Shown in pieces: positions 3,629-54,278 of a DNA stretch of 64,000 nucleotides. Under the pieces are notes generated by a model. That model was not told the origin of the DNA and searched no databases. It saw only the letters and a program-made list of their open reading frames with translations. Position 1 is the stretch's first letter. Each line of letters begins with the position of its first letter. Source of the stretch: Thermoanaerobaculia bacterium (GTDB lineage: Bacteria; Acidobacteriota; Thermoanaerobaculia; Gp7-AA8); contig DASWNW010000086.1 of the NCBI GenBank assembly GCA_036399015.1, forward strand, positions 722 through 64,721. The letters run 5' to 3'. The position numbers were made by a program, and so were the translations under genes.

Positions 3629-4270
3629 ATGAGAAATCCCTGCTCGCCGATCGTCCTCGCCGCTGTCTTCATTGCGGCCGCGGCCGGATGCAAGCCGGCG
3701 CGCGTCGTCAGTCCGCGTGACGCCGCGCCAGCGCAAGCACATACGGTCACCCCGCCGCCCATTCTGTCCCCCACGGAGATTCTCGACTTCGATCCGCAGC
3801 CCGATCCCGAGGCGGCGCGGTTGTGGCGCCGGCTCATGGCGGGAGAGCGGGGGACGGTGCGGGCCGAGCTTGCCGCGCGCTACGAGGCGCAACGGTACCG
3901 TGCCGCGGCAGCGTTCGTGCGGGCGGCGGGTGAAGCGGAAAAGGGGGTCCCTGCCGAGCGATGGCTTCCCGAACTGCTGCAGACTGACCTCGGGCCCGGC
4001 GTGATCCGCGGGTGCGATCGCTACGACTCGAACGTCATACGCCCGATCCTCGAGCAGATGTTTCGTCTCACGACTGCCAGTCGCTACCTTGAGGCGCGCG
4101 ACGCCGGGCTCTCGGGGATGCAGGAGGTGGGGCGCCTCTGTCCGCTCGTCGTCCAGACCGCGTTCGCCACGATCGCGGCGGCGGCGGAACGCAAACCCGT
4201 TTCGGACGAGGAGTTCGAGCTCGCCCGGCGAGCCACGATCACGGGCGACATCGGATGGACCAGTTTGTGA
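3629..4270 (+). CDS. hypothetical lipoprotein
   Basis: ORF 3629..4270; lipoprotein signal VLAAVFIAAAAGC; no recognisable domain. Confidence 0.45.
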   Translation: MRNPCSPIVLAAVFIAAAAGCKPARVVSPRDAAPAQAHTVTPPPILSPTEILDFDPQPDPEAARLWRRLMAGERGTVRAELAARYEAQRYRAAAAFVRAAGEAEKGVPAERWLPELLQTDLGPGVIRGCDRYDSNVIRPILEQMFRLTTASRYLEARDAGLSGMQEVGRLCPLVVQTAFATIAAAAERKPVSDEEFELARRATITGDIGWTSL

Positions 4271-4460
4271 CGCAGGGCGGTGTCACGGCCTACCAGTTTG
4301 CCGCGCTTCATCTGCTGGATCAGGGCGATCCGGCCTCTGCGGTCGTGGCAGCGGAGTTGGGCGTCGCGCGTGAAAAGAAGACGTTCCCGAATTCCGTCGG
4401 ATCGAAGATCGTAGGCATTGCAGACAAGGCCTGGAAGGCGCTCGAGGGACGGCGATGACG

Positions 4461-4522
4461 CCGGTTCCTCGGGTTCCTCGGCGTAACCGCACCCGAGGAA
4501 CTCCGAGGAACCGAGGAACCCC
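4461..4522. repeat. tandem-unit hairpin repeat, unit GTTCCTCGG / CCGAGGAAC (family shared with 22179-22218 and 27474-27563)
   Basis: ggttcctcgggttcctcgg..loop..ccgaggaactccgaggaaccgaggaacc between convergent genes. Confidence 0.7.
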
Positions 4523-4528
4523 GCGCCC

Positions 4529-7218: not shown

Positions 7219-7350
7219 GGTTGCTGGTTGCTGGTTGCTCGTGTCGGTTGTCAGTTGCTCGTTGTCAGTTGTCGGTTGTCGGTTGTCCGTGGAGTGTCGC
7301 CCGGGCGGGAACCCACGTCGACAACTGACAACCGACAACCGACAACACAA
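7219..7350. repeat. composite tandem-unit hairpin: 3x GTTGCTG units then long GTTGTCG/CGACAAC palindrome (stem ~27 bp)
   Basis: ggttgctggttgctggttgctc..gttgtcagttgtcggttgtcggttgtcc-loop-gacaactgacaaccgacaaccgacaac between fpg 3' end and ECF sigma start. Confidence 0.75.
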
Positions 7351-15011: not shown

Positions 15012-15045
15012 TCTCTCCCTGGAGCGACGGGCTCTCAGCCCGTCG
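15012..15045. repeat. small palindromic element (CTCTGGAGCGACGGGCTCTCAGCCCGTC family) just after stop codon
   Basis: tctctccctggagcgacgggctctcagcccgtcg; same element at 22141, 26594, 30788, 63164. Confidence 0.7.
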
Positions 15046-15063
15046 GCATAGGCCGCGTCGGGC

Positions 15064-15438: not shown

Positions 15439-16854
15439 ATGAGTCAGTCGAGAGAGAACGCCGAGGCTACGTCTTTTGCCGAGGCGATGGAGAATCTGGA
15501 CCTCAAAACCCCGCAGCAGGGTGAGCTGCTCCGTGGCACGATCGTCTCGATCTCGGGCGAAGACGCCTACATCTCCTACGGCGGTCCTTCCGAGGCCGTG
15601 ATGGATACCGCGGAGCTCGAGGGTCTCGACATCGGCGATTCAATCGAGGCGACCGTGGTCAAGACCGGCGCCGAGATCCGCGTCTCGCGCAAGCTGATCA
15701 AGGGGAAGGCATCGCTCGACCAGCTCCGCACCGCGTTCGAGAGCCGTCTCCCCGTCGAAGGCAAGGTCACCGGCCGCAACAAGGGCGGCTTCGAAGTGAA
15801 CATCAGCGGCCTCCGCGTGTTCTGCCCCCTGTCACAGATCGCCCTCGGCAAGATCGAGAACCCTGACGCGTTCGTGAACCAGAACATCGAGTTCCGCGTC
15901 ACCGAGATGTCCGATGACGGCCGCCGCATCGTCGTCTCCCGCGCCGCCCTGCTGAAGGAAGCGGCCGCCGAGCGCGCCGCCGAGACCCGCGCACGCATCG
16001 TCCCGGGCGCCGAGCTCACCGGACGCGTCAAGACCCTCACCCCCTTCGGCGCCTTCGTCGACCTGGGCGGCGTGGACGGCCTGCTGCACGTCTCCGAGAT
16101 GAGCCGCCGCCGCGTCACCAATCCCCAGGACGTCGTCCAGATCGGACAGGAAGTCCACGTCAAGGTCATCAAGATCGAGAACGACGGCAAGCGCATCTCG
16201 CTGTCGATGAAGGATCAGGAGCCGGATCCCTGGTACGACGTGGCCGAGCGCTTCACGCCGGGCACGCAGTTCTCCGGCCGCATCGTCCGCTCGACCGACT
16301 TCGGCTTCTTCGTCGAGGTGGAGCCGGGCGTCGACGGGCTCGTGCACGTCTCGCAGCTCCCGCACGGCGTCAAGCCGGGCGACGCGGAAGTGGCCATCGG
16401 CACGCACGTGCAGGGCTGGGTCCGCGAGGTCGATCCCTCGAAGAAGCGCCTCTCGCTCTCCCTCCGCGCCATCGCGGTGGACGATCCGTGGGAGACCGCC
16501 ACGCAGCGCTACTCGGTCGGCAAGGTCGTGAACGGCACCGTCGACCACGGCGCCGCCCCCGGCATCTTCGTCGAGCTCGAGCCGGGCCTCACCGGCCTGA
16601 TCCCGAACTCCGAGATCGCCGCCCCGTCCGGGGTCGATCCGGCCGAGGCACACCAGCCGGGCGAGAAGCTGATGGTGCGCATCATGAGCATCGACCCGCA
16701 GCGCAAGCGCATCTCCCTCTCGCACGAAGCCGCGAAAGCAGCCGCCGAGCGGGAGGAGTACACGAAGTTCATGGACGAGCGCAACGACGAAGCCAGCAGC
16801 GAGTCGGCCATGGCGCTGGCGTTCAAACGAGCAATGGAAAAGAAGAACCGGTAA
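15439..16854 (+). CDS. rpsA: 30S ribosomal protein S1 (six S1 domains)
   Basis: 471 aa; repeated S1 RNA-binding domain signatures (GxV..FGAFV..G..GLLHVSE); followed by canonical terminator. Confidence 0.85.
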   Translation: MSQSRENAEATSFAEAMENLDLKTPQQGELLRGTIVSISGEDAYISYGGPSEAVMDTAELEGLDIGDSIEATVVKTGAEIRVSRKLIKGKASLDQLRTAFESRLPVEGKVTGRNKGGFEVNISGLRVFCPLSQIALGKIENPDAFVNQNIEFRVTEMSDDGRRIVVSRAALLKEAAAERAAETRARIVPGAELTGRVKTLTPFGAFVDLGGVDGLLHVSEMSRRRVTNPQDVVQIGQEVHVKVIKIENDGKRISLSMKDQEPDPWYDVAERFTPGTQFSGRIVRSTDFGFFVEVEPGVDGLVHVSQLPHGVKPGDAEVAIGTHVQGWVREVDPSKKRLSLSLRAIAVDDPWETATQRYSVGKVVNGTVDHGAAPGIFVELEPGLTGLIPNSEIAAPSGVDPAEAHQPGEKLMVRIMSIDPQRKRISLSHEAAKAAAEREEYTKFMDERNDEASSESAMALAFKRAMEKKNR

Positions 16855-16858
16855 GAAA

Positions 16859-16882
16859 GGCCGCCCTCCGGGCGGCCTTTTT
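16859..16882 (+). terminator. rho-independent terminator of rpsA
   Basis: GGCCGCCC-TCC-GGGCGGCC followed by TTTTTG, 5 nt after stop. Confidence 0.8.
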
Positions 16883-16953
16883 GTTGCTAGTTGCTGGTTG
16901 CTGGTGCCTTCGGCCGCCACATCACAAGCAACCAGCAACCAGTAACCAGCAAC
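16883..16953. repeat. GTTGCTG-unit tandem hairpin repeat
   Basis: gttgctagttgctggttgctggtg-loop-caaccagcaaccagtaaccagcaac. Confidence 0.75.
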
Positions 16954-18599: not shown

Positions 18600-19552
18600 G
18601 AGCGGTTGGGATCGTAGCCGGTGTTGCCGCCGCCGGTGCCGCCCGTGCCGCCGGTGCCACCGGTACCGCTGGTGCCGCCGGTTCCACGGTAGTCGGCGCC
18701 GCCCGTACCACCCGTACCGCGATAGTCCGTGCCGCCCGTGCCGGCCGTGCCGCCGGTGCCGCGATAGTCGGTGCCGCGGTCGTAGCCCGGTCCGCGGTCA
18801 AAGTCCGCGCCGGCGACCGTGGTCGTCGTCTCATCCTTCCCGCGATTCACCGCCGCGTAGATCAGGCCTGCGCCGAGGGCGAGGGCCGCTACGCCGGCAG
18901 CAACCTTGGCCGGGTTCTCACGCGTGTACGACGTCACCTTGCTGCTCGAGCCCTTGAGGTAGTCGCGCGCCGTGTTGAGGTACTCGTCGACGTCGACGTT
19001 CTCGAACTGCGAGCGGAGGCTGCCGAGCAGGCCTTCGATGCCGCCGGCCTTGCTGAGCGACTGTCCGCAGTGCGTGCAGAAGTGGTCTTCCCCGGTGTCG
19101 GACGAGGAGCCGGTCGAGCCGGTGCCCGCCGTGCTGCCGCCGCCGTCGCCGACACCACCGCTGCCGCTGCCGCCACCGAGGCCGCTGCCAGCGAGGCCGC
19201 TGCTGCCGGTGCTGCCACCGAGGCCACTGCCACCGAGACCGCTGCTGCCGGTGCTGCCTCCGAGACCGCTGCCGCCGCTGCTGCCGCTGCTGCCGGAGCC
19301 GGCGCCACCGGAGCCATACGAGCCGCTGCCGCTGCCGCTGCCCGGGTTGAGCGAGCCGCCGGAGCTGCTGCCGCCGCCCGTTCCCGAGCTGCTGCCGCCG
19401 CTGCCGGTGGTCATGCCGCCGCCCGACGACATGCCGGTGCCGGTGCCGCCGGAGCCGTAGCCGGCCCCGGTGGACGTGCCGCCCGAGCCGCTGTTCCCTG
19501 TGGTTCCGCCGCTGATGCCGGAGATGGGGTCGTTAGGATCGTTCTGAGCCAT
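18596..19552 (-). CDS. Gly/Ser/Thr-rich low-complexity protein with DUF883 (ElaB/YqjD)-like C-terminal membrane anchor and DYRGTGGT repeats
   Basis: Start set at Met16 (19552) preceded by GGAGG RBS; ..YTRENPAKVAAGVAALALGAGLIYAAVNRG resembles ElaB/YqjD tail anchor. Confidence 0.5.
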   Translation of the reverse strand: MAQNDPNDPISGISGGTTGNSGSGGTSTGAGYGSGGTGTGMSSGGGMTTGSGGSSSGTGGGSSSGGSLNPGSGSGSGSYGSGGAGSGSSGSSGGSGLGGSTGSSGLGGSGLGGSTGSSGLAGSGLGGGSGSGGVGDGGGSTAGTGSTGSSSDTGEDHFCTHCGQSLSKAGGIEGLLGSLRSQFENVDVDEYLNTARDYLKGSSSKVTSYTRENPAKVAAGVAALALGAGLIYAAVNRGKDETTTTVAGADFDRGPGYDRGTDYRGTGGTAGTGGTDYRGTGGTGGADYRGTGGTSGTGGTGGTGGTGGGNTGYDPNRS

Positions 19553-20066: not shown

Positions 20067-20175
20067 GCAGTCGCAGAGTCGCAGAGTCGCAAAGTCGCAG
20101 AGGAGGGAGCGCAGCCTTTGAGCCTCTGACACTCTGAGACTCCGCGACTTTGAGACTCTGCGACTCTGCGACTAC
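20067..20175. repeat. tandem-unit hairpin repeat, unit GCAGAGTC / GACTCTGC, ~45-bp stem, in divergent promoter region
   Basis: cagtcgcagagtcgcagagtcgcaaagtcgcagagg-loop-cctctgacactctgagactccgcgactttgagactctgcgactctgcgact. Confidence 0.75.
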
Positions 20176-20184
20176 GATCCGGCC

Positions 20185-22128
20185 ATGAAACGGCTCATTG
20201 TCGTGCTCGCCCTGGCCGCCGCCGCCGCTCCCCTCATCGCCCAGACCCGCACCCAGAAGCCACCGCTCCACGGCGCGCACTGGATGGCCATCACGGGCAA
20301 GCCGCTCGCCGCGACCGCCGGCGCGATGATGTTCCAGAAGGGCGGCAACGCCGTCGACTCCGCCGCGGCGATGCTCGCCGCCACCTGCACCCTCTGGGAC
20401 ACCCTCGGCTGGGGCGGCGAGACGCAGGCGCTCATCTTCGACCCCCGCACGAAAAAGGTCATCGGCATCAACGCACTCGGCGTCGCCCCCTCCGGCGCCA
20501 CCGCCGACTACTACAAGTCGAAGGGGATGCAGTACCCGCCCGAGTACGGCCCGCTCTCCGCCGTCACTCCCGGCACGCCCGGCGGCCTGATGGTGATGCT
20601 GGCCGAGTACGGGACGCTGTCGCTGAAGGAGGTCCTCGCGCCGTCGATCCAGCTCGCCGACGGCTTCCCGATCGAGGCGCAGCTCGCGAACGGCATCGAG
20701 CGGCAGAAGTCGTGGCTCAAGCAGTGGCCCTATTCACGCGCCGTGATGCTGCCGCATGGTGGGGTGGCGCCCGCTTCGGGCGCCTCGTCGTCTGCGGCGG
20801 CCGGAGCGGCCGCCGCGCCACAGAGCATCACTCCGTCGCACGACGTCGTGACCACCGCTGCCGCCACCACGGGGCGCGAGGCGCCGCATCCCGGCGAGAT
20901 GTTCCGCCAGCCCGATCTCGCGGCGACGCTGCGGAAGCTCGTCGAGGCGGAGCAGCAGGCGCTCCAGCGCGGCAGGTCGCGCAAGGAGGCGATCTACGCC
21001 GCGTACGACCGCTTCTACAAGGGAGACATCGCGCAGGAGATCGCGCGCGGGACGCAGGAGCAGGGAGGGCTGATCACCGCCGCCGACCTCGCGAACTGGC
21101 GCGTGCGCACCGAGGAGCCGGTGAAGACCAGCTACAAAGGGATCGACGTCTACAAGCTGACGGTCTGGACGCAGGGGCCGTCGATGCTGCAGGCGCTGAA
21201 CATCCTCGAGAACTTCGACGTCAAGTCGATGGGCTACAACAGCGCGCGCTACATCCACACGCTCTACCAGGCGCTCAGCCTCGCCTACGCCGACCGCGAC
21301 TTCTACTACGGCGATCCCTACTTCCCGCCGGCGGAGCCGGTGGCCGGGCTGCTGTCGAAGGAGTACGCGCGCGAGCGGGCGAAGCTGGTGAACCCGGAGC
21401 GGAACGATCCGAACATCGGACCGGGCGATCCCTATCCGTTCCAGCGCGAGACGAACCCGTTCCTGGAGACGCTGCGCAACTGGAGCAAGACCGCCACCCA
21501 GCCGCGCACGTCGGCGGCGTTGCAGTCGTTCGACGAGTCGTTCCGCCTCGGCACGACGTCGATCGAGGCGGCGGACGAGCAGGGGTGGGTGGTGTCGATC
21601 ACGCCGAGCGGCGGCTGGGTGCCGGCGGTGATCGCCGGCCGCACCGGCGTCGGTCTCTCGCAGCGGGCGCAGAGCTTCGACACCGACCCGGCGCAGAACC
21701 CGTACAACGTGATCGAGCCGGGCAAGCGCCCGCACGTGACGCTCACGCCGACGCTCGCCTTGAAGGACGGCGCGCCCTACCTTGCCTTCGCGGTGCAGGG
21801 GGGCGACACGCAGGACCAGAACCTCCTGCAGTTCTTCCTCAATGTCGTGGAGTTCGGGATGACCCCGCAGGAGGCGGCCGAGGCGGCGAACTTCAATACG
21901 TTCCAGGTGCGCAAATGGCTCGGCGACCGCCAGTCGATCCCCGGCCGCATCCTCCTGCACGAGGCGACGCCGCCGTGGGTGCGCAACGACCTGCGCAGGA
22001 TGGGCTACGACATGACGTTCGAGGAGCGGACCTCGGGCCCGATCAACGCGATTCTCTTCGACCGCAAGCACGGCACGATGTGGGGCGGCAGCTCGAACCA
22101 TGGGGAGGACTACGGGATCGCCTGGTAA
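20185..22128 (+). CDS. ggt: gamma-glutamyltransferase (Ntn-hydrolase)
   Basis: 647 aa; signal peptide; catalytic Thr region GTTSIEAADEQG; GGT family length and motifs. Confidence 0.85.
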   Translation: MKRLIVVLALAAAAAPLIAQTRTQKPPLHGAHWMAITGKPLAATAGAMMFQKGGNAVDSAAAMLAATCTLWDTLGWGGETQALIFDPRTKKVIGINALGVAPSGATADYYKSKGMQYPPEYGPLSAVTPGTPGGLMVMLAEYGTLSLKEVLAPSIQLADGFPIEAQLANGIERQKSWLKQWPYSRAVMLPHGGVAPASGASSSAAAGAAAAPQSITPSHDVVTTAAATTGREAPHPGEMFRQPDLAATLRKLVEAEQQALQRGRSRKEAIYAAYDRFYKGDIAQEIARGTQEQGGLITAADLANWRVRTEEPVKTSYKGIDVYKLTVWTQGPSMLQALNILENFDVKSMGYNSARYIHTLYQALSLAYADRDFYYGDPYFPPAEPVAGLLSKEYARERAKLVNPERNDPNIGPGDPYPFQRETNPFLETLRNWSKTATQPRTSAALQSFDESFRLGTTSIEAADEQGWVVSITPSGGWVPAVIAGRTGVGLSQRAQSFDTDPAQNPYNVIEPGKRPHVTLTPTLALKDGAPYLAFAVQGGDTQDQNLLQFFLNVVEFGMTPQEAAEAANFNTFQVRKWLGDRQSIPGRILLHEATPPWVRNDLRRMGYDMTFEERTSGPINAILFDRKHGTMWGGSSNHGEDYGIAW

Positions 22129-22140
22129 GGGCGGCGTATT

Positions 22141-22176
22141 CGCCGGGCTGAGAGCCCGGCGCTCCAGAGAGACCGA
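22141..22176. repeat. small palindromic element (inverted orientation) after ggt stop
   Basis: cgccgggctgagagcccggcgctccagagagaccg = reverse complement of CTCTCTGGAGCGCCGGGCTCTCAGCCCGGCG. Confidence 0.7.
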
Positions 22177-22178
22177 AA

Positions 22179-22218
22179 CCCGAGGAACTCCGAGGAACTC
22201 CGAGGAACCCGAGGAACC
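22179..22218. repeat. four direct CCGAGGAAC units (one arm only)
   Basis: cccgaggaactccgaggaactccgaggaacccgaggaacccc. Confidence 0.65.
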
Positions 22219-22219
22219 C

Positions 22220-22684
22220 CTACGCCGCCGGCGGTGACGCCAGGTCAACTGCCAGCGGCTGCGCCGCGCGCTCCACGGCCGGCTTCCGGAACCCCCACAC
22301 CGCGAGCGCGGTGCCAGCGATCGCGGCGACGGAGAGGCTCTGCAGCAGGAACGCGACCACCGCTTCCGCGAGCGACGTCCCGGTCGTGCCGGCGCCGGCG
22401 ATCGGGGTGAAGCGGCTCGCGCCTGTCATCGCGCCGAGGAGGCAGGCGGCCCAGTTGGCCCACGCCGCATAGACCCACGCCCACATCATCATCTTCGCGG
22501 AGCGCGGCGCGAGCGCGAACGACGCAGCGAGCGCGCCGAGGGCGATCAGCACCAGGCCGCCGGTGATGGCGACGATGTGCGCGGCGAGGCCGAGCCGCGG
22601 GTTCGTGTACAGCGGCATCCCGAACCCGGTGAACAGGCCCACCAGGATCAGCACGAATCCCAACTGGATCTGGAGACGATTCAT
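22220..22684 (-). CDS. hypothetical membrane protein (4 TM)
   Basis: 154 aa with four hydrophobic helices. Confidence 0.45.
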   Translation of the reverse strand: MNRLQIQLGFVLILVGLFTGFGMPLYTNPRLGLAAHIVAITGGLVLIALGALAASFALAPRSAKMMMWAWVYAAWANWAACLLGAMTGASRFTPIAGAGTTGTSLAEAVVAFLLQSLSVAAIAGTALAVWGFRKPAVERAAQPLAVDLASPPAA

Positions 22685-22772
22685 GGTTCCTCCGGACGAC
22701 TTTTGCTTGGTTGTGCCGCTGAGTTTAGCTCCAGCAGGCCGTTCGCGGCATCATGTACGTCGGGATCCGCCG

Positions 22773-23036
22773 ATGACCGACCGCCGAACCCTGCTCCTGA
22801 CCCGGCGCGCGGTGCGCGTGAAGGGGCGGCGTGTCATCGCCCGCTTCGTCTTGCAGCCGGGTCGCGCCGCGGTGATCACGCTCCCGACGCACAACGACGC
22901 CCGCCGCGCCGCCGCCCGCCTCATCACGCAGTTGCGCCTGACGAAGACCGACGAGGAGTGGGACGACCTCCTCACCTTTCGCGTGGAGCTCATCCGCGCG
23001 ATGTACACGGTGGGGGAGGGCAACGAGGAGGAGTGA
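22773..23036 (+). CDS. small hypothetical protein (88 aa)
   Basis: Internal ATG of ORF 22563..23036; arginine-rich; weak support. Confidence 0.25.
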   Translation: MTDRRTLLLTRRAVRVKGRRVIARFVLQPGRAAVITLPTHNDARRAAARLITQLRLTKTDEEWDDLLTFRVELIRAMYTVGEGNEEE

Positions 23037-23045
23037 GCCGCCCGC

Positions 23046-24251
23046 TCACCGGACGCGCAGCAGCGAGTCCAGCTCGTCCGGCCGCGACGAGCGCACCCGC
23101 GCGTCCTCGACGGTGATCAACCCATCGCGCACGAGCGTCGCCAGCGAGTCCTCCAGCGAGATCATGCCGGCCCGTTTGCCGAGGGTGATCTCCGTGGCGA
23201 GGTTCTGCAGCTTCTCGGTGCGGATGTGATTGCGCACGGCGTGATTCGCGAGCAGCACCTCCACCGCCACCGCCCGCCCCTTCCCGTCCGAGCGGGGGAT
23301 GAGGTGCTGCACGACGATCGCGTTCAGGCTGAGCGCGAGCTGCTGCCGGATCTGCGTCTGCTGCGACGGCGGGAAGACGTCCACGATCCGGTGGAGGGCC
23401 TGCGCCGCGTCGCTGGTGTGCAGCGTCGAGAGGATGAGATGTCCCGTCTCCGCGGCGGTGAGCGCGGTGGCGACGGTCTCGAGGTCGCGCATCTCGCCGA
23501 CGTGGATGACGTCGGGATCCTGGCGCAGCGACGCGCGCAGCGCCGCTGCGAACGACGGCGCGTCGCGTCCGACTTCCACCTGCTCGATGATCGAGGCGGT
23601 GTTGCGGTGCTCGTACTCGATCGGGTCTTCGATGGTGATGATGTGCCGCGCCTCGTTCCGGTTGATCTCTCCGATCAGCGCGGCGAGGGTGGTCGACTTG
23701 CCGGAGCCGGTCGGGCCGCAGACGAGCAGCAGTCCCCGTTGCGGTTTGACGAGCTCCGCGAGCGATGGCGGCAGCCGCAACTGCTGGAGCGTCGGCACGT
23801 CGGTCGGCAGCGCGCGGATCGAGGCCGCGAGCGTCCCCCGCTGGCGATGCACGTTCACCCGGAAGCGCCAGGCGCGCCGGTCTTCGTCGGAGGCCGCACG
23901 CCCCAGGCGCAGCGAGAAGTCGGCGGCCCCCTCGGCGTCCACCTTCTCCCGCAGCCGCGCCGAGACGAGCGGGGCCAGCAGTCCGTTGATGTCATCCGTC
24001 GAGAAGGCGGCGTCGGTGGTGCGAGCGAGGCGCCCCGCGATCCGGAACACCGGCGGGACGCCGGCCACGAGGAGGAGGTCGCTCGCCCCCCGCTGCGCCA
24101 TGTCGATCAGCAGCCCCTCCAGCGCGTTCCCCTCGGGGACGCTCGCCGGCGGCCACGCCGCGGCAGCCCGCGTTTCGTCGGTAGCCGGCTCCTTGTCGTT
24201 GAGCTCCCTTACCAGCGCCTCGAGCTCCGGGTCACGGATCAGCTTCGTCAT
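23046..24251 (-). CDS. PilT/PilU-family type IV pilus retraction ATPase homolog (orphan)
   Basis: Start at Met35 (24251); Walker A GPTGSGKST, Asp box, His box typical of PilT. Confidence 0.75.
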   Translation of the reverse strand: MTKLIRDPELEALVRELNDKEPATDETRAAAAWPPASVPEGNALEGLLIDMAQRGASDLLLVAGVPPVFRIAGRLARTTDAAFSTDDINGLLAPLVSARLREKVDAEGAADFSLRLGRAASDEDRRAWRFRVNVHRQRGTLAASIRALPTDVPTLQQLRLPPSLAELVKPQRGLLLVCGPTGSGKSTTLAALIGEINRNEARHIITIEDPIEYEHRNTASIIEQVEVGRDAPSFAAALRASLRQDPDVIHVGEMRDLETVATALTAAETGHLILSTLHTSDAAQALHRIVDVFPPSQQTQIRQQLALSLNAIVVQHLIPRSDGKGRAVAVEVLLANHAVRNHIRTEKLQNLATEITLGKRAGMISLEDSLATLVRDGLITVEDARVRSSRPDELDSLLRVR

Positions 24252-24446
24252 CCCATTCACTATACGAATGAAGCATGCCATTGGTATCGACTGACCCACC
24301 TGGTCATGAATTGATCCGCAATGACGCCCATAAAGGATCGAAATATGATCCATCTCGAAGTGCTTTTCAATGGAATCAACAACTTACGCGCTGGCGCGTC
24401 CGTTGCCCTTAGCTGGCCTCCGCTAACCAATGAGGAAGGGACTTCA

Positions 24447-26579
24447 ATGAAGAGAACTTTTGTCACGCTGATGGTGCTCCTGACGGCTGTGGGGGCATTC
24501 GCCCAAGAGAGAAACTTCCGGGCGCTCCGCGCGCATGTCGATGAGAACGGCGTCCCGTCGTTCGTCGGCGGCGAGCTTGGCCGCCTCAGCGGGGGAGACG
24601 TCGGCGCTGCCGCCCGTCAGTTCCTTCGCGGCCAGAAAGAGGTCCTCCAGGGCACCGGCACCGAGGACTTCGAGCCGGTCTCGACCTTCAACGACGACTT
24701 CGGTCAGACGCACGTCCGCCTGCAGCAGCGGGTGAACGGCCTCCCGGTCGTCGGCGCCGAGTACATCGTGCACGCCGACTCGACCGGCCGCGTCTTCGCG
24801 ATGAACGGCCGCTTCTCGCCGGACCGCGACCTGCCGCGCCACGCGGAGCTCAACGGCTGGGACGCCATCGAGCGCGCCATCGGCCAGGCCGGCATCCAGC
24901 AGCCGGCGTACAACGGCATGCCGCGTTTGACGTACGTCGTCAACGAGCGTGGCAACACCTTCCTCGCGTTCGTCGTCGAGGCTTCCTACGTCAACGACCA
25001 GGGCGAGCAGCGCGACCTCGTCTACGCGGACGCCCTCACCGGCGACCTCGTGCTGCGCGACGCGCAGATCCACCGCGCCCGCAACCGCCGCACGTACAAC
25101 GGTAACCGCACCACCACGCTGCCGGGCACGCTCGTCCTGCAGGAGACCAGCGGCTCGACGACGGACTCCGCCATCTCGACCGCGCACGCCCACGCGGCGA
25201 GCTCCTACGACTACTACAGCAGCGTGCACGGCCGCGACTCCTTCAACGGCGCGGGCGCGATCATCTCCACGACCGTCCACCACGACGTGAACTACAACAA
25301 CGCGTTCTGGAACGGCTCGCAGCTCGTCTACGGCGACGGCGACGGCACGACCTTCTCCTCGCTCGGCAACTCGCTCGACGTCGGTGCGCACGAGTTCACG
25401 CACGCCGTCACCGACTACAGCGCCGACCTGGTCTACGCCAACGAGTCCGGCGCCCTCAACGAGGCCACCTCGGACATCATGGCTTCCGCCCTCGAGGCCT
25501 GGAAGGACGGCTCCGTCAACACCGACACCTGGAAGATCGGCGAGGACATCTACACCCCCGCCACCGCCGGTGACGCCCTCCGCTACATGAACGACCCGGC
25601 CGCGGGCGGCGACTACGACTACTACCCGACCCGTTACGTCGGTACCGACGACGACGGCGGCGTGCACTGGAACAGCGGCATCGCGAACCTCGCGTTCAAG
25701 CTGATGGTCACCGGCGGCACGCACCCCCGCAGCAAGACCACGGTCAGCGTCCCGGCGCTCAGCGCCACCGCGCTCACCTCGATCGACATGGGCGCGAAGA
25801 TCTGGTATCGCGCGCTCACCGTCTACATGAACTCCTCGACGAATTTCCTCGGCGCCCGCAACGCCACCGCGCAGGCCGCCACCGACCTGTACGGCGCGAC
25901 CGCGGCCAACGCCGTGCAGCTCGCGTGGGACGCCGTCGGCGTGCCGCGCCCGGCGCCGACCGTCACGCTCTCCAACGGCGTGGCCGTCACCGGCATCGGC
26001 GCCTCCACCGGCACCTGGAAGCACTACAAGATCGCCGTGCCCTCGGGCCAGTCGAAGCTGGACATCGTGATGTCGGGCGGCACCGGCGACGGCGACATGT
26101 ACGTCAAGCGCGGCGCGCAGCCGACCTCGTCGAGCTACGACTACCGTCCGTACCTCAGCGGCAACGCCGAGAGCGTCGCCGTCACCAACCCGGTCGCGGG
26201 CGACTGGTACATCAGCATCTACGCCTACTCGACCTTCGCCAGCGTCACCCTGAAGGCGACCTACACCGGCACCGTCACGCCGCCGGCCTGCACGAGCGTC
26301 ACCAGCTCGCTCTCCGGCAGCGGCGCGAACTACTACACCGCGCAATACACGTCGAGCATCAGCGGCTCGCACACCGGAAAGCTGACCGGCCCCTCCGGCA
26401 CCGACTTCGACCTGTACCTGCAGAAGTGGAACGGCTCGTCGTGGGCCATCGTGGGACGCGGTGAGACGTCCACCTCGACCGAGAACGTGACCTACAGCGG
26501 CACGTCCGGCCAGTACCGGTGGCGCGTCTACTCGTACAGCGGCAGCGGTTCGTTCACGCTCTGCACGACCAAGCCGTAA
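24447..26579 (+). CDS. secreted M4 (thermolysin/vibriolysin-like) metalloprotease with two C-terminal PPC-type domains
   Basis: Start at Met43 with RBS; HEFTHAV HExxH, GALNEATSD, GGVHWNSGI thermolysin signatures. Confidence 0.85.
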   Translation: MKRTFVTLMVLLTAVGAFAQERNFRALRAHVDENGVPSFVGGELGRLSGGDVGAAARQFLRGQKEVLQGTGTEDFEPVSTFNDDFGQTHVRLQQRVNGLPVVGAEYIVHADSTGRVFAMNGRFSPDRDLPRHAELNGWDAIERAIGQAGIQQPAYNGMPRLTYVVNERGNTFLAFVVEASYVNDQGEQRDLVYADALTGDLVLRDAQIHRARNRRTYNGNRTTTLPGTLVLQETSGSTTDSAISTAHAHAASSYDYYSSVHGRDSFNGAGAIISTTVHHDVNYNNAFWNGSQLVYGDGDGTTFSSLGNSLDVGAHEFTHAVTDYSADLVYANESGALNEATSDIMASALEAWKDGSVNTDTWKIGEDIYTPATAGDALRYMNDPAAGGDYDYYPTRYVGTDDDGGVHWNSGIANLAFKLMVTGGTHPRSKTTVSVPALSATALTSIDMGAKIWYRALTVYMNSSTNFLGARNATAQAATDLYGATAANAVQLAWDAVGVPRPAPTVTLSNGVAVTGIGASTGTWKHYKIAVPSGQSKLDIVMSGGTGDGDMYVKRGAQPTSSSYDYRPYLSGNAESVAVTNPVAGDWYISIYAYSTFASVTLKATYTGTVTPPACTSVTSSLSGSGANYYTAQYTSSISGSHTGKLTGPSGTDFDLYLQKWNGSSWAIVGRGETSTSTENVTYSGTSGQYRWRVYSYSGSGSFTLCTTKP

Positions 26580-26602
26580 TCAGTCTCTGAGGTTTCTCTG
26601 GA

Positions 26603-26636
26603 GGGACGGGCGTTCAGCCCGTCCCTTTTCTTTTTG
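26603..26636 (+). terminator. intrinsic terminator of the M4 protease gene built from the small palindromic element
   Basis: GGGACGGGCGTTCAGCCCGTCCC followed by TTTTCTTTTTG. Confidence 0.6.
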
Positions 26637-26697
26637 TTCACACCTCGCGGTTTCGTCCCGGACGGCGGTGCGCTCCAACAAACCAAAGGAGACACCC

Positions 26698-27465
26698 ATG
26701 TTCGAGACATCGGTCGTACAGGTCCGCGCGCAGTCCGGCGCCAGACTGAGCCTGCTGTCGGTTTCCGTCATCGCCCACAGCGCGGTCGTCATCGGCGCCA
26801 TCGCGATGAGCATCGCATCCACCGAGTTCCCGACGAACGCGCCGAAGGCGTTCGAGCTGGCGCCGGTGTTCCGCATGCCGCCGCCGTTGGGCACGCTCGG
26901 CGGCAGCAGCCGTCCGCCCGAGCCGAAGCCGCCGCAGCCGCAGCAGAAGCAGCCCGCCGCGCCGGTACAGCCGAATGAGGTGACCGCACCGCAGACGGTC
27001 CCCGACACGATCCAGAACGCGAAGCCGGCAGCGTCGGCGTTGCCGTCGTCGACGCCAGGCACTGGCGACTCATCCGTGGTGTCGAACGGACCCGGCGTGC
27101 CGTGGGGCACGAAGGGCGCGACGGGCGACCTCGACGCCCCTCCCGGACCTCTCGCGACGGCTGAGCCGGAGCCGGAGAAGATCTACGAGGTGCACGAGGT
27201 CAAGGCGCCGGTGCCGCTCTACAAGCCCGACCCGCAGTACCCGCCGCACCTGGTCCGCACGCGGATGCCGGCGACGGTGGTGGTGCGCTGCATCATCGAC
27301 AAGAACGGCCACGTCCGCGACCCGCGCCTCGTCCAGTCCGGCCTCCCGCCGTTCAACAAGGCAGTGCTCGACGTGATCTCGACCTGGCGCTACACGCCCG
27401 GCTCGCGGAACGGGGTGGCGGTGGAGACGTACCTCGACGTGACGGTGAGATTCGGGGTGAATTGA
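26698..27465 (+). CDS. tonB: TonB family energy transducer (TM anchor, Pro-rich spacer, TonB_C)
   Basis: Start Met11 with AAGGAGA RBS; PPPLG..PEPKPPQPQQK proline-rich region; C-terminal ..YPPHL..VVRCIIDKNGHV..VQSGLPPFNKAVLDVI. Confidence 0.75.
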   Translation: MFETSVVQVRAQSGARLSLLSVSVIAHSAVVIGAIAMSIASTEFPTNAPKAFELAPVFRMPPPLGTLGGSSRPPEPKPPQPQQKQPAAPVQPNEVTAPQTVPDTIQNAKPAASALPSSTPGTGDSSVVSNGPGVPWGTKGATGDLDAPPGPLATAEPEPEKIYEVHEVKAPVPLYKPDPQYPPHLVRTRMPATVVVRCIIDKNGHVRDPRLVQSGLPPFNKAVLDVISTWRYTPGSRNGVAVETYLDVTVRFGVN

Positions 27466-27473
27466 GCGAGGCG

Positions 27474-27563
27474 GTTCCTCGGAGTTCCTCGGCAGTTCCT
27501 CGGGTTCCTCAGCCGACCTCCCCCGAGGAACCCCGAGGAACCCCGAGGAACCCCGAGGAACCC
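27474..27563. repeat. GTTCCTCGG x4 / CCGAGGAAC x4 hairpin repeat after tonB
   Basis: ggttcctcggagttcctcggcagttcctcgggttcctc-loop-ccccgaggaa x4. Confidence 0.75.
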
Positions 27564-27594
27564 TTTTGGCGTGCCCGGTGCAACCTCCCGAAGC

Positions 27595-27918
27595 ATGCCG
27601 ATACAAGGAAAAAAAGAAAGCAAACAACGAGCGATCAAGGGCGTCCAGACGTCCGGGAACACCACCGGACGCGGCGCCCTTGGCGCTCTCGTCACTCCCA
27701 GTCCCGAGCTCGCCCACATCGTCGGCTCCTCGCCGCTCACCCGCGGCGACGCCATGAAGCGCCTCTGGGATTACATCAAGAAGCACAACCTGCAGGACCC
27801 GGCGAACAAGCGGCGGATCATCGCCGACGACAACCTGCGGCCGATCTTCGAGAACAACGACTCGCTGAGCATGTTCGAGATGACGGCGTACGTGTCGCGG
27901 CACCTGCACAAGCAGTAG
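27595..27918 (+). CDS. SWIB/MDM2 domain protein
   Basis: ATG at 27595 within ORF 27571..27918; Lys-rich N-term then SWIB signature PSPELAHIVGSSPLTRGDAMKRLWDYIKKHNLQDPANKRRIIADDNLRPIF..SMFEM. Confidence 0.7.
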   Translation: MPIQGKKESKQRAIKGVQTSGNTTGRGALGALVTPSPELAHIVGSSPLTRGDAMKRLWDYIKKHNLQDPANKRRIIADDNLRPIFENNDSLSMFEMTAYVSRHLHKQ

Positions 27919-27921
27919 GTC

Positions 27922-28791
27922 TCACGCCTCCGGCGCGACCTCATCGGCCGCCACGGTGCGCTTCGCGAGCGACGTCACGTAGACGACGCCGACCACGCCA
28001 CCGATCGTCAGCACCGCCCCCAGCGCGGCGGTTGCGCTGATGGTCTCCCCGATGAGCGTCGCGCCGAGGGCCATGGAGACGACCACCGCAAGCTGCGAAA
28101 TCACCCCGACCGTCATCGCGTCGACCCACCGCAGGCTGAACGTCAGCAGGAGTTGCGCGCCGATGGCGAACAGCGACGTCGCGGCGAGGTAGAACCACTC
28201 CGCCGCGGTCGGGTTCTTCCACGTCGCCACCGCCAGCGGCGCGGTGAGGAGCGTGCCGAAGAGGCAGAAGCTCGTGTAGACGGCCCAGGAGTTCTCCCCC
28301 TTGCGCGCGGCGCGCATCGCCGTTACCGCGGCGCCGGAGAGGATGCCGGAGCAGAGGCCGACCAGCTCCCATATCCCGAAGCCGAGCACGTCGCCGGGAC
28401 GGGCGTTCGCCCGCACGACCAGGTAGACGCCCGCGAGCGCGACCGGCATCGGGATCAGCACCTTGCTGCTGATGCGCTCCCGCAGGAAGAGCACCGACAG
28501 GATGCCACTGAACAGCGGTGAGGTGTAGTTGAGGAGCGTGGCCACGCCGACGCTGATCTTCTCGATGGCGATGAAGTAGCAGAGCACCGCGCTGCCCCCG
28601 AAGAGCCCGCGGTAGAAGAGGAGGTCGAGCCGCTTGAAGGTGAACGCGCTGGCGCGGAACCGCGGCACCAGCAGCGCGGGGAGGAGGCCGGTGACGAAGC
28701 GGATCAGCGCGACTTCGGACCCCGAGAGGCCGCGCGAGGCCAGCTTGGCGGCGAACGCCATCCCGCCGAACAGCAGCGCCGACGCGGTCAT
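27922..28791 (-). CDS. EamA/DMT family transporter (10 TM)
   Basis: Start at Met62 to avoid overlap with divergent GNAT; two EamA-like halves. Confidence 0.7.
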   Translation of the reverse strand: MTASALLFGGMAFAAKLASRGLSGSEVALIRFVTGLLPALLVPRFRASAFTFKRLDLLFYRGLFGGSAVLCYFIAIEKISVGVATLLNYTSPLFSGILSVLFLRERISSKVLIPMPVALAGVYLVVRANARPGDVLGFGIWELVGLCSGILSGAAVTAMRAARKGENSWAVYTSFCLFGTLLTAPLAVATWKNPTAAEWFYLAATSLFAIGAQLLLTFSLRWVDAMTVGVISQLAVVVSMALGATLIGETISATAALGAVLTIGGVVGVVYVTSLAKRTVAADEVAPEA

Positions 28792-29322: not shown

Positions 29323-29414
29323 GAATGAAGAATTTCGAATGAAGAATGAAGAGGTTGTTCACGGCCGCCGGCTGGACTTTATTCTTCATTCTTCATTCGA
29401 ACCTCTTCATTCGA
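29323..29414. repeat. tandem-unit hairpin repeat, unit GAATGAAGA / TCTTCATTC
   Basis: gaatgaagaatttcgaatgaagaatgaagag-loop-ttcttcattcttcattcgaacctcttcattcg. Confidence 0.75.
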
Positions 29415-29424: not shown

Positions 29425-32160
29425 ATGCGACGAGCCGTCACCCTCGCGATCCTCCTCCTCTCCCTCTCCCTCCACGCCCTCCCTCCAAACGTCGAAAAGA
29501 TCGACTCCTTCCGCGGCATCGACCAGTACCGCCTCAAGTCCAACGACATGACCATCCTGCTGGTGCCGAACCACGCCAGCCCGGTCGTCACGTTCATGGT
29601 GGTCTACCACGTCGGCTCGCGGAACGAGGCGCCGGGGAACACCGGCTCGGCGCACCTGCTCGAGCACATGATCTTCAACAAGTCGACCGAGAACTTCGGC
29701 CGCGCCAAGGGCCACAAGACGTTTCAGGAAGTGCTCTATGAGGCGGGCGCCGACTATTCGTCGACGAACATGACCACCTGGAACGACCGGATGAACGGCT
29801 ACTCCACGCTGCCGTCCGACAAGCTGGAGCTGGCCATGAAGATCGAGGCCGACCGGCTCGGCCGCGGCCTCATCCTCGACAGCGAGCGGCAGTCGGAGAT
29901 GTCGGTCGTCCGCAACGAGTACGAGATCGGCGAGAACGACCCGTCGAACGCGCTCTGGAAGAACGTCATCGCCACGGCCATCCAGGCGCACCCCTATCAC
30001 TGGGACACGATCGGCTACCGCTCCGACATCGAGGGCGTGACGACCGAGAAGCTGCGCGAGCACTACAAGACGTTCTTCTGGCCCGACAACGCGGAGGCCA
30101 TCCTGGTCGGCGACTTCGACACGGAGCAGGCGCTGGCGATGTTCGACCGCGAGTTCGGCGCCTTCAAGAAGAGCGACAAGCCGATCCCGCAGGTGATCAC
30201 CGTCGAGCCGCCGCAGGAAGGGGAGCGCCGCGTCGTCGTGCAGCGCCCCGGCACGGTCGGCATCGTGCAGATCGGCTACATGCGTCCCGGCGCGCTCGAT
30301 CCCGACTTCATCGTCCTCGACGTGCTCAGCTCCATCCTCGGCGACGGCGTGAACTCGCGCCTCTACCGTGCGCTCGTCGAGAAGCAGCTCGCCACCAGCG
30401 TCAGCTCGCACAACTTCACGCTCCGCGATCCCTACCCGCTGATGATCGAGGCGAACCTCGCCGCCGGAAAGGCCCACACCGACGTGGAGCAGGGCATCAA
30501 GGCCGCGGTCGCCGAGGTCGTCGCCAAAGGGGTGACGGACGAAGAGGTGAAACGCGCGCAGCAGCAGATCGAGGTCGCCGTCATCCGCAGCCGCGACGGC
30601 ACCTTCAACTACGCCTCCAACCTCGGCGAGTCGGTGGCGTCGACGAACTGGAAGTGGTTCCTGACCTACGTCGACAACGTCAAGGCCGTGACCGCCGCGG
30701 ATGTGAAGCGCGTCGCGTCGGCCTACCTGACGCCGGAGCGGGCGACCGTCGGCTGGTTCGTCCCGGGGACCGCCGTGAAGCCCGTCCCCTCTGGAGCGAC
30801 GGCCTCTCAGGCCGTCGCCGCGAAGACGGAGAGCCGGGCTGAGAGCCCGGCCGTGCAGAGAGAGACCAAACCCGCCGCCGGCTCCTTCGCCCAGCGCACC
30901 ACCCGCCGCGTCCTCCCGAACGGCATCATCGTCGACGTCGTCGAGAACCACGCCGTCCCCACCGTCGCCATCCGCGCCCTCGCGTTCGCGGGCGACATCG
31001 CCGCGCCTGCCGGGAAGCCGGCCGTCCCCGCGCTCACCGCGAAGATGCTCGCCCGCGGTACGAAGTCGCGCACGAAGGAGCAGATCGGCAAGCTGCTCGA
31101 CGACGTCGGCGCGACCCGCTCCTACGCGACTAACCTCACCGAGGCGCTGGTGAGCGCGAACGGGATGTCGCGCGACCTGCCGCTGCTGCTGGAAGTCCTC
31201 GGCGACGAATTGAAGAACCCCGCCTTCACGGCCGAGGAGCTGGAGAAGGCGAAGAACGAGCTCGAGAACGACTACCTGCGCGCCGACGATCAGACCAGCG
31301 CCCGCGCGATGCAGCGCCTCAGCCAGCTCGTCTACCGTGAGAACCATCCGTACTACGCCTTCGGCCGGGCGAAGCTCGTCGAGAGCGCGAAAGCGGCGAC
31401 CGCGGACGACCTCCGCGGCTTCCATCGCGCCCGCTACGCCGGCGCGGGGCTGATCGTGGCCATCGTCGGCGACGTCGACACCGCGAAGACGCTGGCGCTG
31501 GTCGAGAAGCAGCTCGGCGGCCTGCCGAAAGGGGAGCGGATCTCGTTCGCGCAGCTCCCACGCACCACTCCCGCCGCGAAGGGCGTGCGCGAGGCGGTGA
31601 CGATGCCCGGCAAGGCGAACATGAACATCGTCATGGGCACCGCCTCCGGTCTCCGCCGCAACGATCCCGACTACGAGGCCGCGCTCATCGCCAACGCCGC
31701 GCTCGGGCAGACGGCGCTCTCGTCACGCATCGGCCGCCGCGTGCGCGACACCGAGGGCTTGTCGTACAACCTCGCGTCGCGCTTCTGGAACAGCGACGTG
31801 CTCGACGGCGTCTGGTGGGTGAACGTCAACGTCGCGCCGCAGAACCTCGAGAAGGCGATGAAGTCGACCTACGAGGAGATCGTGAAGTTCGGCCGCGAGG
31901 GGGTCACCGACGAAGAGGTGGCGGCGCAGAAGAGCTTCTTCGCCGGCAACTACAAGGTCGGCCTCGGCTCGAACGCCGGCGTCGCCACGGCCCTCGTGAC
32001 GGCGGAGAAGTTCGGCTTCGGCCCCCGCTACCTCGACGAGTTTCCCGCGCGCATCAACGCCGTGACGAAGGACCAGGTGAACGCCGCCATGCGCAAGTAC
32101 CTCTTCCCCGACCGGCTGCACGTGATCGTGGCGGGAGATCTGGAGAAGGTGCCTGATTAG
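29425..32160 (+). CDS. secreted M16 (pitrilysin/insulinase) family zinc peptidase, double-module (911 aa), carrying in-frame palindromic-element insertion in the inter-module linker
   Basis: Signal peptide; inverted zinc motif HLLEHMIF (HxxEH); second M16-like half; linker residues ..PSGATASQAVAAKTESRAESPAVQRETKP.. are encoded by two copies of the palindromic element. Confidence 0.85.
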   Translation: MRRAVTLAILLLSLSLHALPPNVEKIDSFRGIDQYRLKSNDMTILLVPNHASPVVTFMVVYHVGSRNEAPGNTGSAHLLEHMIFNKSTENFGRAKGHKTFQEVLYEAGADYSSTNMTTWNDRMNGYSTLPSDKLELAMKIEADRLGRGLILDSERQSEMSVVRNEYEIGENDPSNALWKNVIATAIQAHPYHWDTIGYRSDIEGVTTEKLREHYKTFFWPDNAEAILVGDFDTEQALAMFDREFGAFKKSDKPIPQVITVEPPQEGERRVVVQRPGTVGIVQIGYMRPGALDPDFIVLDVLSSILGDGVNSRLYRALVEKQLATSVSSHNFTLRDPYPLMIEANLAAGKAHTDVEQGIKAAVAEVVAKGVTDEEVKRAQQQIEVAVIRSRDGTFNYASNLGESVASTNWKWFLTYVDNVKAVTAADVKRVASAYLTPERATVGWFVPGTAVKPVPSGATASQAVAAKTESRAESPAVQRETKPAAGSFAQRTTRRVLPNGIIVDVVENHAVPTVAIRALAFAGDIAAPAGKPAVPALTAKMLARGTKSRTKEQIGKLLDDVGATRSYATNLTEALVSANGMSRDLPLLLEVLGDELKNPAFTAEELEKAKNELENDYLRADDQTSARAMQRLSQLVYRENHPYYAFGRAKLVESAKAATADDLRGFHRARYAGAGLIVAIVGDVDTAKTLALVEKQLGGLPKGERISFAQLPRTTPAAKGVREAVTMPGKANMNIVMGTASGLRRNDPDYEAALIANAALGQTALSSRIGRRVRDTEGLSYNLASRFWNSDVLDGVWWVNVNVAPQNLEKAMKSTYEEIVKFGREGVTDEEVAAQKSFFAGNYKVGLGSNAGVATALVTAEKFGFGPRYLDEFPARINAVTKDQVNAAMRKYLFPDRLHVIVAGDLEKVPD
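30788..30868. repeat. two inverted copies of small palindromic element inside M16 peptidase CDS (in frame)
   Basis: ctctggagcgacggcctctcaggccgtcgcc ... gagccgggctgagagcccggccgtgcagagagag. Confidence 0.7.
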
Positions 32161-32240
32161 TTACTGGTTGCTGGTTGCTGGTTCCTTGTGAGTCGTTGAG
32201 CGCGGGCAAACCAGCAACCAGCAACTAGCAACCAGCAACG
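32161..32240. repeat. GTTGCTG-unit tandem hairpin repeat between convergent genes; right arm overlaps last codons of methyltransferase
   Basis: ttactggttgctggttgctggttcc-loop-aaaccagcaaccagcaactagcaaccagcaac. Confidence 0.75.
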
Positions 32241-34523: not shown

Positions 34524-34540
34524 TACGCGCCTACGGCGCG

Positions 34541-34621
34541 GTTGCTGGTTGCTGGTTGCTCGTGAACTCCCAGCCACACGGCGCCATAGCAACCAGCAAC
34601 CAGTAACCAGTAACCAGCAAC
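34541..34621. repeat. GTTGCTG-unit tandem hairpin repeat inside efflux operon (between adaptor and ATPase genes)
   Basis: gttgctggttgctggttgctcgtg-loop-caaccagcaaccagtaaccagtaaccagcaac. Confidence 0.75.
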
Positions 34622-36632: not shown

Positions 36633-36722
36633 GTTGCTGGTTGCTGGTGGCTGGTTCCTTGTGAGGTGTTCCTCCACGCACCCACTGCGTCACGAGCAAC
36701 AAGCAACGAGCAACCAGCAACC
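36633..36722. repeat. GTTGCTG-unit tandem hairpin repeat between the two permease genes
   Basis: gttgctggttgctggtggctggttcc-loop-gagcaacaagcaacgagcaaccagcaacc. Confidence 0.75.
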
Positions 36723-53848: not shown

Positions 53849-53925
53849 TGCCGGCGCCCGGCAAATCGTAAAGTCACACGGCTCGCCTCGCGCCTCGCGA
53901 GGCGGGCCAACTGCCCCCACCTCAC

Positions 53926-54186: not shown

Positions 54187-54278
54187 CGCGGCCGCGGCGA
54201 CGATGTAAAAGAACGTCACGGTCGCTCGCGCATCGCAGCCGCCCCGTCCCGCCAACGACGCGTGCGACAATCGCGTCC

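Follow-up and report, generated by a model that had tools for sequence, protein, structure and literature searches.

The window analysed here is a 64-kb stretch of DNA from a Thermoanaerobaculia bacterium, in which a nonamer unit, GTTCCTCGG, and its reverse unit, CCGAGGAAC, are arrayed in tandem at three loci. The focal hairpin lies between a TonB_C-domain gene (tonB, 26698–27465) and a SWIB-domain gene (27595–27918), both on the plus strand and assigned by Pfam, and starts 8 nt 3′ of the tonB stop codon (27463–27465). Its 5′ arm (27474–27512) consists of three GTTCCTCGG units and the variant GTTCCTCAG as the fourth unit, with A, CA and no spacer between successive units, and its 3′ arm (27523–27561) consists of four CCGAGGAAC units with C spacers, then CCCTTTTGG. 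The 10-nt loop between the arms (CCGACCTCCC, 27513–27522) showed no similarity to the loops of other copies. The stem is followed only by TTTT at a distance of 3 nt; a sigma-54-like motif (TGGCGTGCCCGGTGCA, 27567–27582) is 5 nt from the hairpin, and the ATG of the SWIB-domain gene (27595) is 33 nt away. Three independent assemblies (ENA, JGI and Logan) present the hairpin base for base identically, and it is therefore not an assembly artefact. The population occurs in soil samples (JGI 3300034145, ENA ERZ27253124).

The second hairpin begins with two units (4464–4481), 5 nt after the stop of a candidate small ORF of 67 aa (4255–4458), and continues with an 11-nt loop (CGTAACCGCAC, 4482–4492) and three reverse units (4493–4519), which end at a distance of 9 nt from the nearest confident gene end, the stop of a convergent DUF4097 gene (4529–5986, minus strand, Pfam). 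The third locus (22180–22217) is a one-armed array of four units: the minus strand reads GTTCCTCGG and the plus strand carries reverse units only. This array lacks a partner arm and by itself is without structure. It lies 2 nt past the stop of a minus-strand ORF (22220–22684), in the sense orientation of that ORF, which converges across the array with the gamma-glutamyltranspeptidase gene (ggt, 20185–22128, plus strand, Pfam). By both position and orientation, the array belongs to the minus-strand ORF and not to ggt. The initial annotation had placed all three sites immediately 3′ of genes (lipoprotein, ggt and tonB). This is right for tonB and wrong for the other two, as the lipoprotein-like ORF (3629–4270) ends 190 nt before the second hairpin and ggt stops 51 nt before the one-armed array.

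The spacer between ggt and the minus-strand ORF holds two further features. A 9-bp inverted repeat, GGCGGCGTA / TACGCCGCC (22130–22138 and 22221–22229), flanks the entire spacer, its right copy reaching over the stop and final codons of the minus-strand ORF; a larger palindrome of older date may have left it behind. A copy of a small palindromic element (22141–22169, minus strand, CTCTGGAGCG CCGGGCTCTCAGCCCGG CG) lies 11 nt from the one-armed array and is outside the nonamer family.

Abundance, folding and gene ends in the window

It is evident that the feature is real and statistically unambiguous. The exact nonamer GTTCCTCGG occurs 19 times in the 64-kb window, against an expectation of 0.98 ± 0.95 from dinucleotide-preserving shuffles, none of 100 of which reached 19. 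The proposal, first made from the letters of the window, that nonamer hairpins at the 3′ ends of genes make up a third repeat family is borne out, and the coordinates and sequences of its three loci, with two to four tandem units each, are as they had been given. The three clusters hold 16 of the 19 exact copies; the other three are isolated, where about one would be expected in 64 kb, and all three fall in coding sequence. On the other hand, the ORFs rich in PRNRGT/EEP that had been read in frame from the arrays are spurious, since the irregular spacing of the units (9, 10 or 11 nt) breaks any reading frame, and the arrays are therefore non-coding.

Folding energy, which had been suggested as a check, is exceptional for the two hairpins. 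The RNA of the focal hairpin (27466–27575) folds at −70.4 kcal/mol (z −7.6) from the plus strand and at −78.7 (z −7.3) from the minus strand, with −39.1 (z −7.1) for DNA parameters; the corresponding values for the second hairpin (4456–4530) are −43.3 kcal/mol (z −5.0), −48.8 (z −4.8) and −27.3 (z −5.7). The one-armed array alone (22172–22225) is unstructured, at −5.1 (z +0.7) with DNA parameters. A known structured RNA family was rejected, as no Rfam covariance model matched anywhere in the window at the gathering threshold.

Nearly all gene ends of the window that have a spacer carry a repeat hairpin, of the nonamer or of a related unit, or else the small palindrome. Canonical terminators are no more frequent than by chance (12 in 20 kb, where 10.4 would be expected), and a terminator scanner reported none at 22180 or 27474 within the region scanned, which left the 4464 locus outside.

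The nonamer family in related genomes

Species-representative genomes were scanned with two adjacent units as the query, which gave at least 114 loci and at least 139 nonamer clusters. Among the matches listed, about 75 loci come from 11 species of Thermoanaerobaculia/Acidobacteriota known as metagenome-assembled genomes (MAGs), the nearest of which have about 80% nucleotide identity to the window in coding DNA. The genome-wide pattern search that the initial annotation had called for therefore returned more than 100 further clusters in at least 11 related MAG species. Almost all matches from other phyla or viral contigs have one arm, lie within genes and are spaced by exact multiples of 9 nt, and are for these reasons coding repeats; a phage or plasmid origin was rejected because the viral-contig matches and nearly all non-Acidobacteriota matches are such in-frame, one-armed 9-nt repeats. 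Beyond those MAGs, the paired form was seen, among the matches listed, in only one other Acidobacteriota MAG (Vicinamibacterales, L008). This is a multi-copy family confined, among the matches listed, to one Acidobacteriota lineage.

The architecture is strict in some respects and free in others. The unit is (A/G)GTTCCTCGG, of 9–10 nt, with no spacer, A or G between units on the left arm and no spacer, T or C on the right arm. The order in the Acidobacteriota loci is always (GTTCCTCGG)n, loop, (CCGAGGAAC)n, and the reverse order never occurs among the matches listed. The most frequent size is 4 + 4 units, with exactly four units in 29 of 50 clean hairpins for each arm. The arm sizes of one hairpin correlate only weakly and not significantly (rho 0.21). 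Arms are 36–40 bp long, and loops are 7–72 nt with a median of 20 nt. The paired hairpin is the commonest arrangement; about 45% of the clusters are one-armed and are therefore unable to fold. No folding advantage of the sense-strand RNA was found, the sense strand being better in 9 elements and worse in 15, and selection on a sense-RNA hairpin via G-U asymmetry was rejected on this count.

The ends of the arms are sharp, and loops and flanks are unrelated between copies. The loops and flanks of 50 hairpins were no more alike than shuffled controls, with a top loop score of 12 in both. Extension of the palindrome into the flanks was not found, the complementarity of 2.79 being only marginally above the control value of 2.40, and neither was a target-site duplication (the flanks scored 1.23 for direct repeats and permuted controls 1.22). 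No transposase or other recurrent gene family turned up among the 150 closest neighbouring genes in the 11 MAGs, for the matches listed. Transposition of the whole element was accordingly rejected on the dissimilar loops and flanks, the missing target-site duplication and the lack of a transposase among the 150 neighbours. Fold-back duplication together with unique flank, an idea prompted by the GGCGGCGTA/TACGCCGCC repeat around the 22180 array, was rejected as a general route because the small excess of flank complementarity is driven by one locus, L002.

With regard to genes, nonamer clusters in Acidobacteriota loci sit between them, and elements start at a median of 6–10 nt past the stop codon of a high-GC3 ORF. 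Such an ORF end lies within 40 nt of 24 of 59 hairpins, compared with 1.6% per side for random positions. Among one-armed arrays away from contig ends, the sense strand of the adjacent gene reads GTTCCTCGG in 10 of 11 informative cases. At L063 and L002 the nonamer element lies directly beyond a canonical terminator with hairpin and T-tract, and a heptamer hairpin of the window (16883, within 16854–16953) likewise follows a canonical terminator. The family occupies the few neutral bases at the end of a transcription unit, after the stop codon or after a canonical terminator.

Occupancy of these sites turns over between related species. Locus L063 is syntenic with the window at 21263–28398, and its tonB-SWIB spacer, which holds the focal hairpin in the window, is an empty 54 nt; the spacer is also empty in L136, and the metagenomic relatives L120, L122 and L123 have other, unrelated palindromes there. 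Conversely, the spacer between an M4-peptidase gene and tonB has a 6+4 nonamer hairpin in L063 (in L063 orientation) and only a terminator-like palindrome in the window. The focal hairpin has been inserted into a gap of about 11 nt between the tonB stop and the sigma-54-like motif, which is conserved upstream of SWIB in relatives. This motif has the form TGGCGYG-N4/5-(C/G)TGC, with its GG and GC doublets 10 nt apart, and is found 12–25 nt upstream of the SWIB gene in all close relatives examined (1725–1742 in L063, and upstream of the SWIB ATG in L120–L136).

Moreover, copies within a genome resemble each other more than they resemble the copies of other genomes, which is concerted evolution. 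Unit variants are genome-specific, with GTACCTCGG in DASPNA, JALYOB and DASVSV, GTGCCTCGG in DASVRB and GTCCCTCGG mainly in JBAQWH, and spacer usage differs between MAGs (chi-square 101, p = 2e-14). The variant GTACCTCGG is found together in both arms (p = 1e-4), with a mirrored register only in L063; compensatory covariation between arms was rejected as its explanation, because this co-occurrence is confounded by species. Likeness within a genome in spite of the turnover of sites requires ongoing intragenomic copying or homogenisation of arms.

Short-read contigs often end within nonamer arrays (L117, Logan SRR10954988, as well as L011, L026, L048, L058, L075 and L102), and one Logan contig breaks inside the focal hairpin. 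The family therefore fragments assemblies of these genomes.

Other repeat families of like architecture

The same architecture is built from other units, namely GTTGCTG, GTTGTCG, AGTCGCAG and GAATGAA in the window and GAAGAGT, GGATTGA, GAACGAT, AGTCGTCG and CAGGGCG in the related MAGs, and these arrays too lie mostly a few nt past stop codons. The heptamer family of the window (GTTGCTG/CAGCAAC and GTTGTCG/CGACAAC) forms hairpins at 7219–7346, 16883–16953, 32160–32239, 34540–34621, 36633–36722 and 58982–59072. Three of its copies, unlike the nonamer family, have a loop-proximal motif in common, GGTTCCTTGTGAG, which is inverted at 16918, and the copies at 32160 and 36633 are 89% identical over 38 nt; the sharing of GGTTCCTTGTGAG hints at copying beyond the arms in this family. 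One orthologous spacer has a GGTTGCT hairpin in the window and an AGCTCTT/AACAGCT hairpin in L092, and its unit has therefore changed in concert; in this L092 hairpin, drift has cost the two arms their complementarity. Another heptamer hairpin of the window fills a spacer that in L092 is an intra-operon spacer of 11 nt.

An octamer hairpin (20069–20173; four AGTCGCAG units, then CTGCGACT/TGAGACTC) overlaps a sigma-70-like promoter match and stops 11 nt short of the ggt start codon, and is therefore an exception to the rule of position 3′ of genes. An AT-rich heptamer hairpin (29323–29398), with four GAATGAA units and three CTTCATT units, lies about 3 nt past the stop of an acetyltransferase gene and before an M16 peptidase gene. 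The loop of a nonamer hairpin in L087 (5164–5293) holds three tandem GAGTCTCA units, related to the octamer family of the window at 20119–20173, so that repeat families can nest.

The small palindromic element, in which CTCTGGAG precedes a GC-rich stem of 9 bp that carries a CTCAG-type loop, has five copies in the window (15017–15046, 22141–22169 on the minus strand, 26596–26625, 30789–30818 and 63158–63187) and is essentially absent from the related MAG loci. The initial annotation had proposed that it co-localises with the nonamers; only one of the five copies is next to a nonamer array, and a link between the two was rejected. Within 20 kb, the copy at 26596, which has a T-tract, is alone in being a convincing canonical terminator, and the copies at 30789 and 63158, 97% identical, are apparently inside predicted coding regions. 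Two further repeats of the window are of other kinds. At 53921–54223 a 65-nt unit that contains the palindrome GAGGGACATGGGGTGATGTCCCTC is repeated three to four times in tandem, upstream of a predicted gene at 54132 and overlapping its start. Dense GC-rich repeats of 9-nt period (GCCGCCGGT and related) at 18600–19500 look like minus-strand coding sequence for a Gly-rich repeat protein.

Relation to known repeats and possible function

Among described repeats, the closest analogue is the GGGAATC repeat of Xanthomonas, with REP/REPIN elements as the functional analogue. Intergenic heptamer repeats of unknown function have been reported from Xanthomonas (GGGAATC) and Nostoc (GGGGA(C/T)T) (Rehm et al., 2015, PMC4692102), in a paper that also cites long-unit simple sequence repeats and the cyanobacterial STRR heptamers. 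Like these repeats, the nonamer is a short non-palindromic unit in tandem with a strong intergenic bias and a preference for four units. The G-rich strand is again the coding strand, with the stop codon 0–50 bp away; the arrays are under-represented between divergent genes, occur frequently as tandemly inverted pairs able to form stem-loops, and vary extensively in length and sequence between close relatives. The differences are that the unit has 7 nt there and 9–10 nt here, that the phylum is another (Acidobacteriota, class Thermoanaerobaculia), and that here the paired hairpin is the commonest form, with almost no quadruplex potential (8% of arms). Thus, the nonamer family has every feature of the Xanthomonas type except quadruplex potential. 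The four-unit preference in Xanthomonas has been ascribed to G-quadruplex formation (PMC4692102), an account which is therefore inapplicable here.

The REP, BIME and REPIN elements (Bertels and Rainey, 2011, PMC3116915) are similarly extragenic and multi-copy with several families per genome, form inverted doublets with a less conserved spacer and predicted hairpins in single-stranded DNA or mRNA, and differ in distribution between relatives. Reported roles of REP elements are in transcription termination and mRNA stability, and evolution by gene conversion has been proposed (PMC3116915). On the other hand, REP itself is an imperfect palindrome of 20–40 nt, whereas here a non-palindromic 9-mer, repeated in tandem, makes up the arm; the spacers of REPINs are constrained in length with compensatory changes, whereas the loops here range over 7–72 nt and are unrelated; and RAYT, a Y1 transposase, was not found among the 150 genes nearest to elements in the 11 MAGs, for the matches listed. 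MITEs resemble the family in being small, non-coding and multi-copy, with terminal inverted repeats and presence/absence polymorphism, but here there is no target-site duplication and no conserved internal sequence, arm length is variable, and a related transposase was not found among the 150 nearest genes. A MITE identity was rejected for want of the target-site duplication and the conserved core. What is new here is thus the phylum and the 9–10-nt unit; the kind of repeat, an extragenic tandem and inverted one that is poorly understood, is known already.

We propose that the elements are lineage-specific extragenic repeat palindromes, in which each arm is a short tandem array, most often of four units, facing the other across an unrelated loop. 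Other arms may serve as templates for new arms and for the renewal of old ones, through ectopic gene conversion or template switching combined with replication slippage, with no transposase moving the whole element. The paired form, when transcribed, is predicted to fold into a hairpin of 35–40 bp, which, in the manner of E. coli REP elements, could hinder read-through, block 3′ exonucleases at the end of the upstream mRNA, or do both. The best reading is a REP-like extragenic palindrome of slippage-prone tandem units, which probably serves as a 3′-end hairpin or barrier. The fuller proposal, which joins such a role of the paired form to arm renewal by slippage and templating without a transposase, is put forward tentatively, as something a little short of probable. 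Since the element starts less than 15 nt from the stop codon, it could possibly also modulate translation termination of the upstream gene; Liang, Rudd and Deutscher reportedly found in 2015 that the terminating ribosome can be stalled by REPs no farther than about 15 nt from a stop codon.

Several observations fit this proposal badly, and some of them bear on one alternative, that the elements are ordinary Rho-independent terminators, in which hairpin and U-tract release RNA polymerase, in both directions at convergent genes. The elements are GC-rich, very stable hairpins a few nt past stop codons whose symmetry works both ways at convergent genes, CCCTTTTGG follows the focal copy, and canonical terminators are otherwise rare in the genome. 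However, TTTT occurs within 12 nt downstream of only one of 50 clean hairpins, and the lack of a T/U-tract after the other 49 counts against a purely structural role as well; the stems of 36–40 bp are three to four times longer than those of terminators, and the large loops are likewise far outside terminator dimensions. The elements of L063 and L002 have a proper terminator immediately before them, one-armed arrays are common, and a related heptamer hairpin sits where a relative has its 11-nt intra-operon spacer. The terminator role raised in the initial annotation is thus not, or only weakly, supported in its ordinary form, and we consider it quite improbable. For the copies distal to a canonical terminator (L063, L002 and the heptamer hairpin at 16854–16953), little transcription should reach the element at all. 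Moreover, one-armed arrays obey the rule of position and orientation (10 to 1) though they cannot form a hairpin, the sense-strand RNA folds no better than the antisense strand, and arm sizes are only weakly correlated; nor does a role of structure alone account for the four-unit preference and the conservation of the unit in at least 12 species. Selfish or neutral repeat DNA without cellular function, that is, slippage-prone arrays spread by recombination or template switching which persist only where insertion is harmless, in the few bases between the stop codon and the next signal, would agree with the rapid gain and loss at orthologous sites, the genome-specific dialects, the many unit families of one architecture, the focal copy in its gap of about 11 nt before a conserved promoter motif, the sense strand without folding advantage and the drifted arms of the L092 heptamer hairpin. 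Against it stand a unit conserved across at least 12 species with coding DNA only about 80% identical, the sharp mode at four units, the strict forward-then-reverse order and the sense orientation of one-armed arrays, and that relatives usually hold another hairpin at the same spacer, which suggests that a hairpin is wanted there. A neutral origin is unlikely on balance, yet it deserves serious weight.

The arrays may instead be binding sites for a sequence-specific DNA- or RNA-binding protein that marks transcription-unit boundaries, for example as a roadblock, an insulator or a platform for a nucleoid or RNA-binding protein, with the unit co-evolving with its binder. Such a protein would account for a unit conserved across species between free loops and flanks, for four units being favoured at any unit length (nonamers, the heptamers of the window and the Xanthomonas heptamers, PMC4692102), for the fixed orientation to the adjacent gene, one-armed arrays included, and for dialects resembling the co-evolution of REP with RAYT or of uptake sequences with their receptor. 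But no gene family recurs beside the elements (150 nearest genes), there is no candidate protein, and the several unrelated unit families in one genome would require several binding proteins; helical phasing is not a common feature, as the period is 9–10 bp here and 7 bp in the sister families. This reading is rather improbable. G-quadruplexes, as proposed for GGGAATC of Xanthomonas and GGGGAYT of Nostoc, could form on the minus strand of 27521–27563, which is the canonical motif (GGGG TTCCTC)x4, and the Xanthomonas repeats have the same four-unit preference and near-stop position (PMC4692102). The pattern (G3+ N1-7)x3 G3+ is nevertheless present in only 10 of 121 arms of at least four units, G runs are broken by the frequent A spacer, and the sister families GAAGAGT, GGATTGA and GTTGCTG have no G tracts, so that the quadruplex element is largely refuted and has hardly any probability left. 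DNA uptake sequences of the kind known from Neisseria and Pasteurellaceae, which accumulate in inverted pairs where genes end, would share the conserved short unit, the lineage-specific dialects, the inverted pairs downstream of genes and the unrelated loops and flanks. Uptake sequences, however, are found about once in every kb and for the most part singly, whereas single nonamers are barely enriched in the window, all three of them in coding sequence, and several unit families coexist in one genome; we regard this origin as very improbable indeed.

Finally, it is conceivable, though we think it quite a long shot, that the arrays are not decaying copies of a mobile element but owe their installation and renewal to a dedicated, sequence-templated process acting at the outer gene boundary. 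If this is true, the 5′ end of the GTTCCTCGG strand facing the gene, the sharp arms, the quantisation at about four units whatever the unit length, the unrelated loops and flanks, the absence of a transposase nearby and the dialect of each genome would be signatures of an unrecognised mode of repeat propagation or of a protein-guided boundary element. The process would then be common to the Xanthomonas GGGAATC and cyanobacterial heptamer repeats, and would give the four-unit rule without G-quadruplexes.

Stop-proximal short tandem repeats have been reported from Xanthomonas and cyanobacteria without an accepted function. The family described here follows like rules (four units, position near the stop codon, fixed orientation and inverted pairing) in an unrelated phylum and almost without quadruplex potential, which undercuts the quadruplex explanation of the four-unit rule and suggests that the cause is more general: a mutational process, or else a shared type of binding factor. 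Its main value is thus comparative, as a quadruplex-free test case for the rules of such repeats, and it could serve to mark this lineage of soil Acidobacteriota. Should they indeed act as 3′-end barriers, the hairpins would be the chief signal of gene ends in a genome whose canonical terminators occur at chance level.
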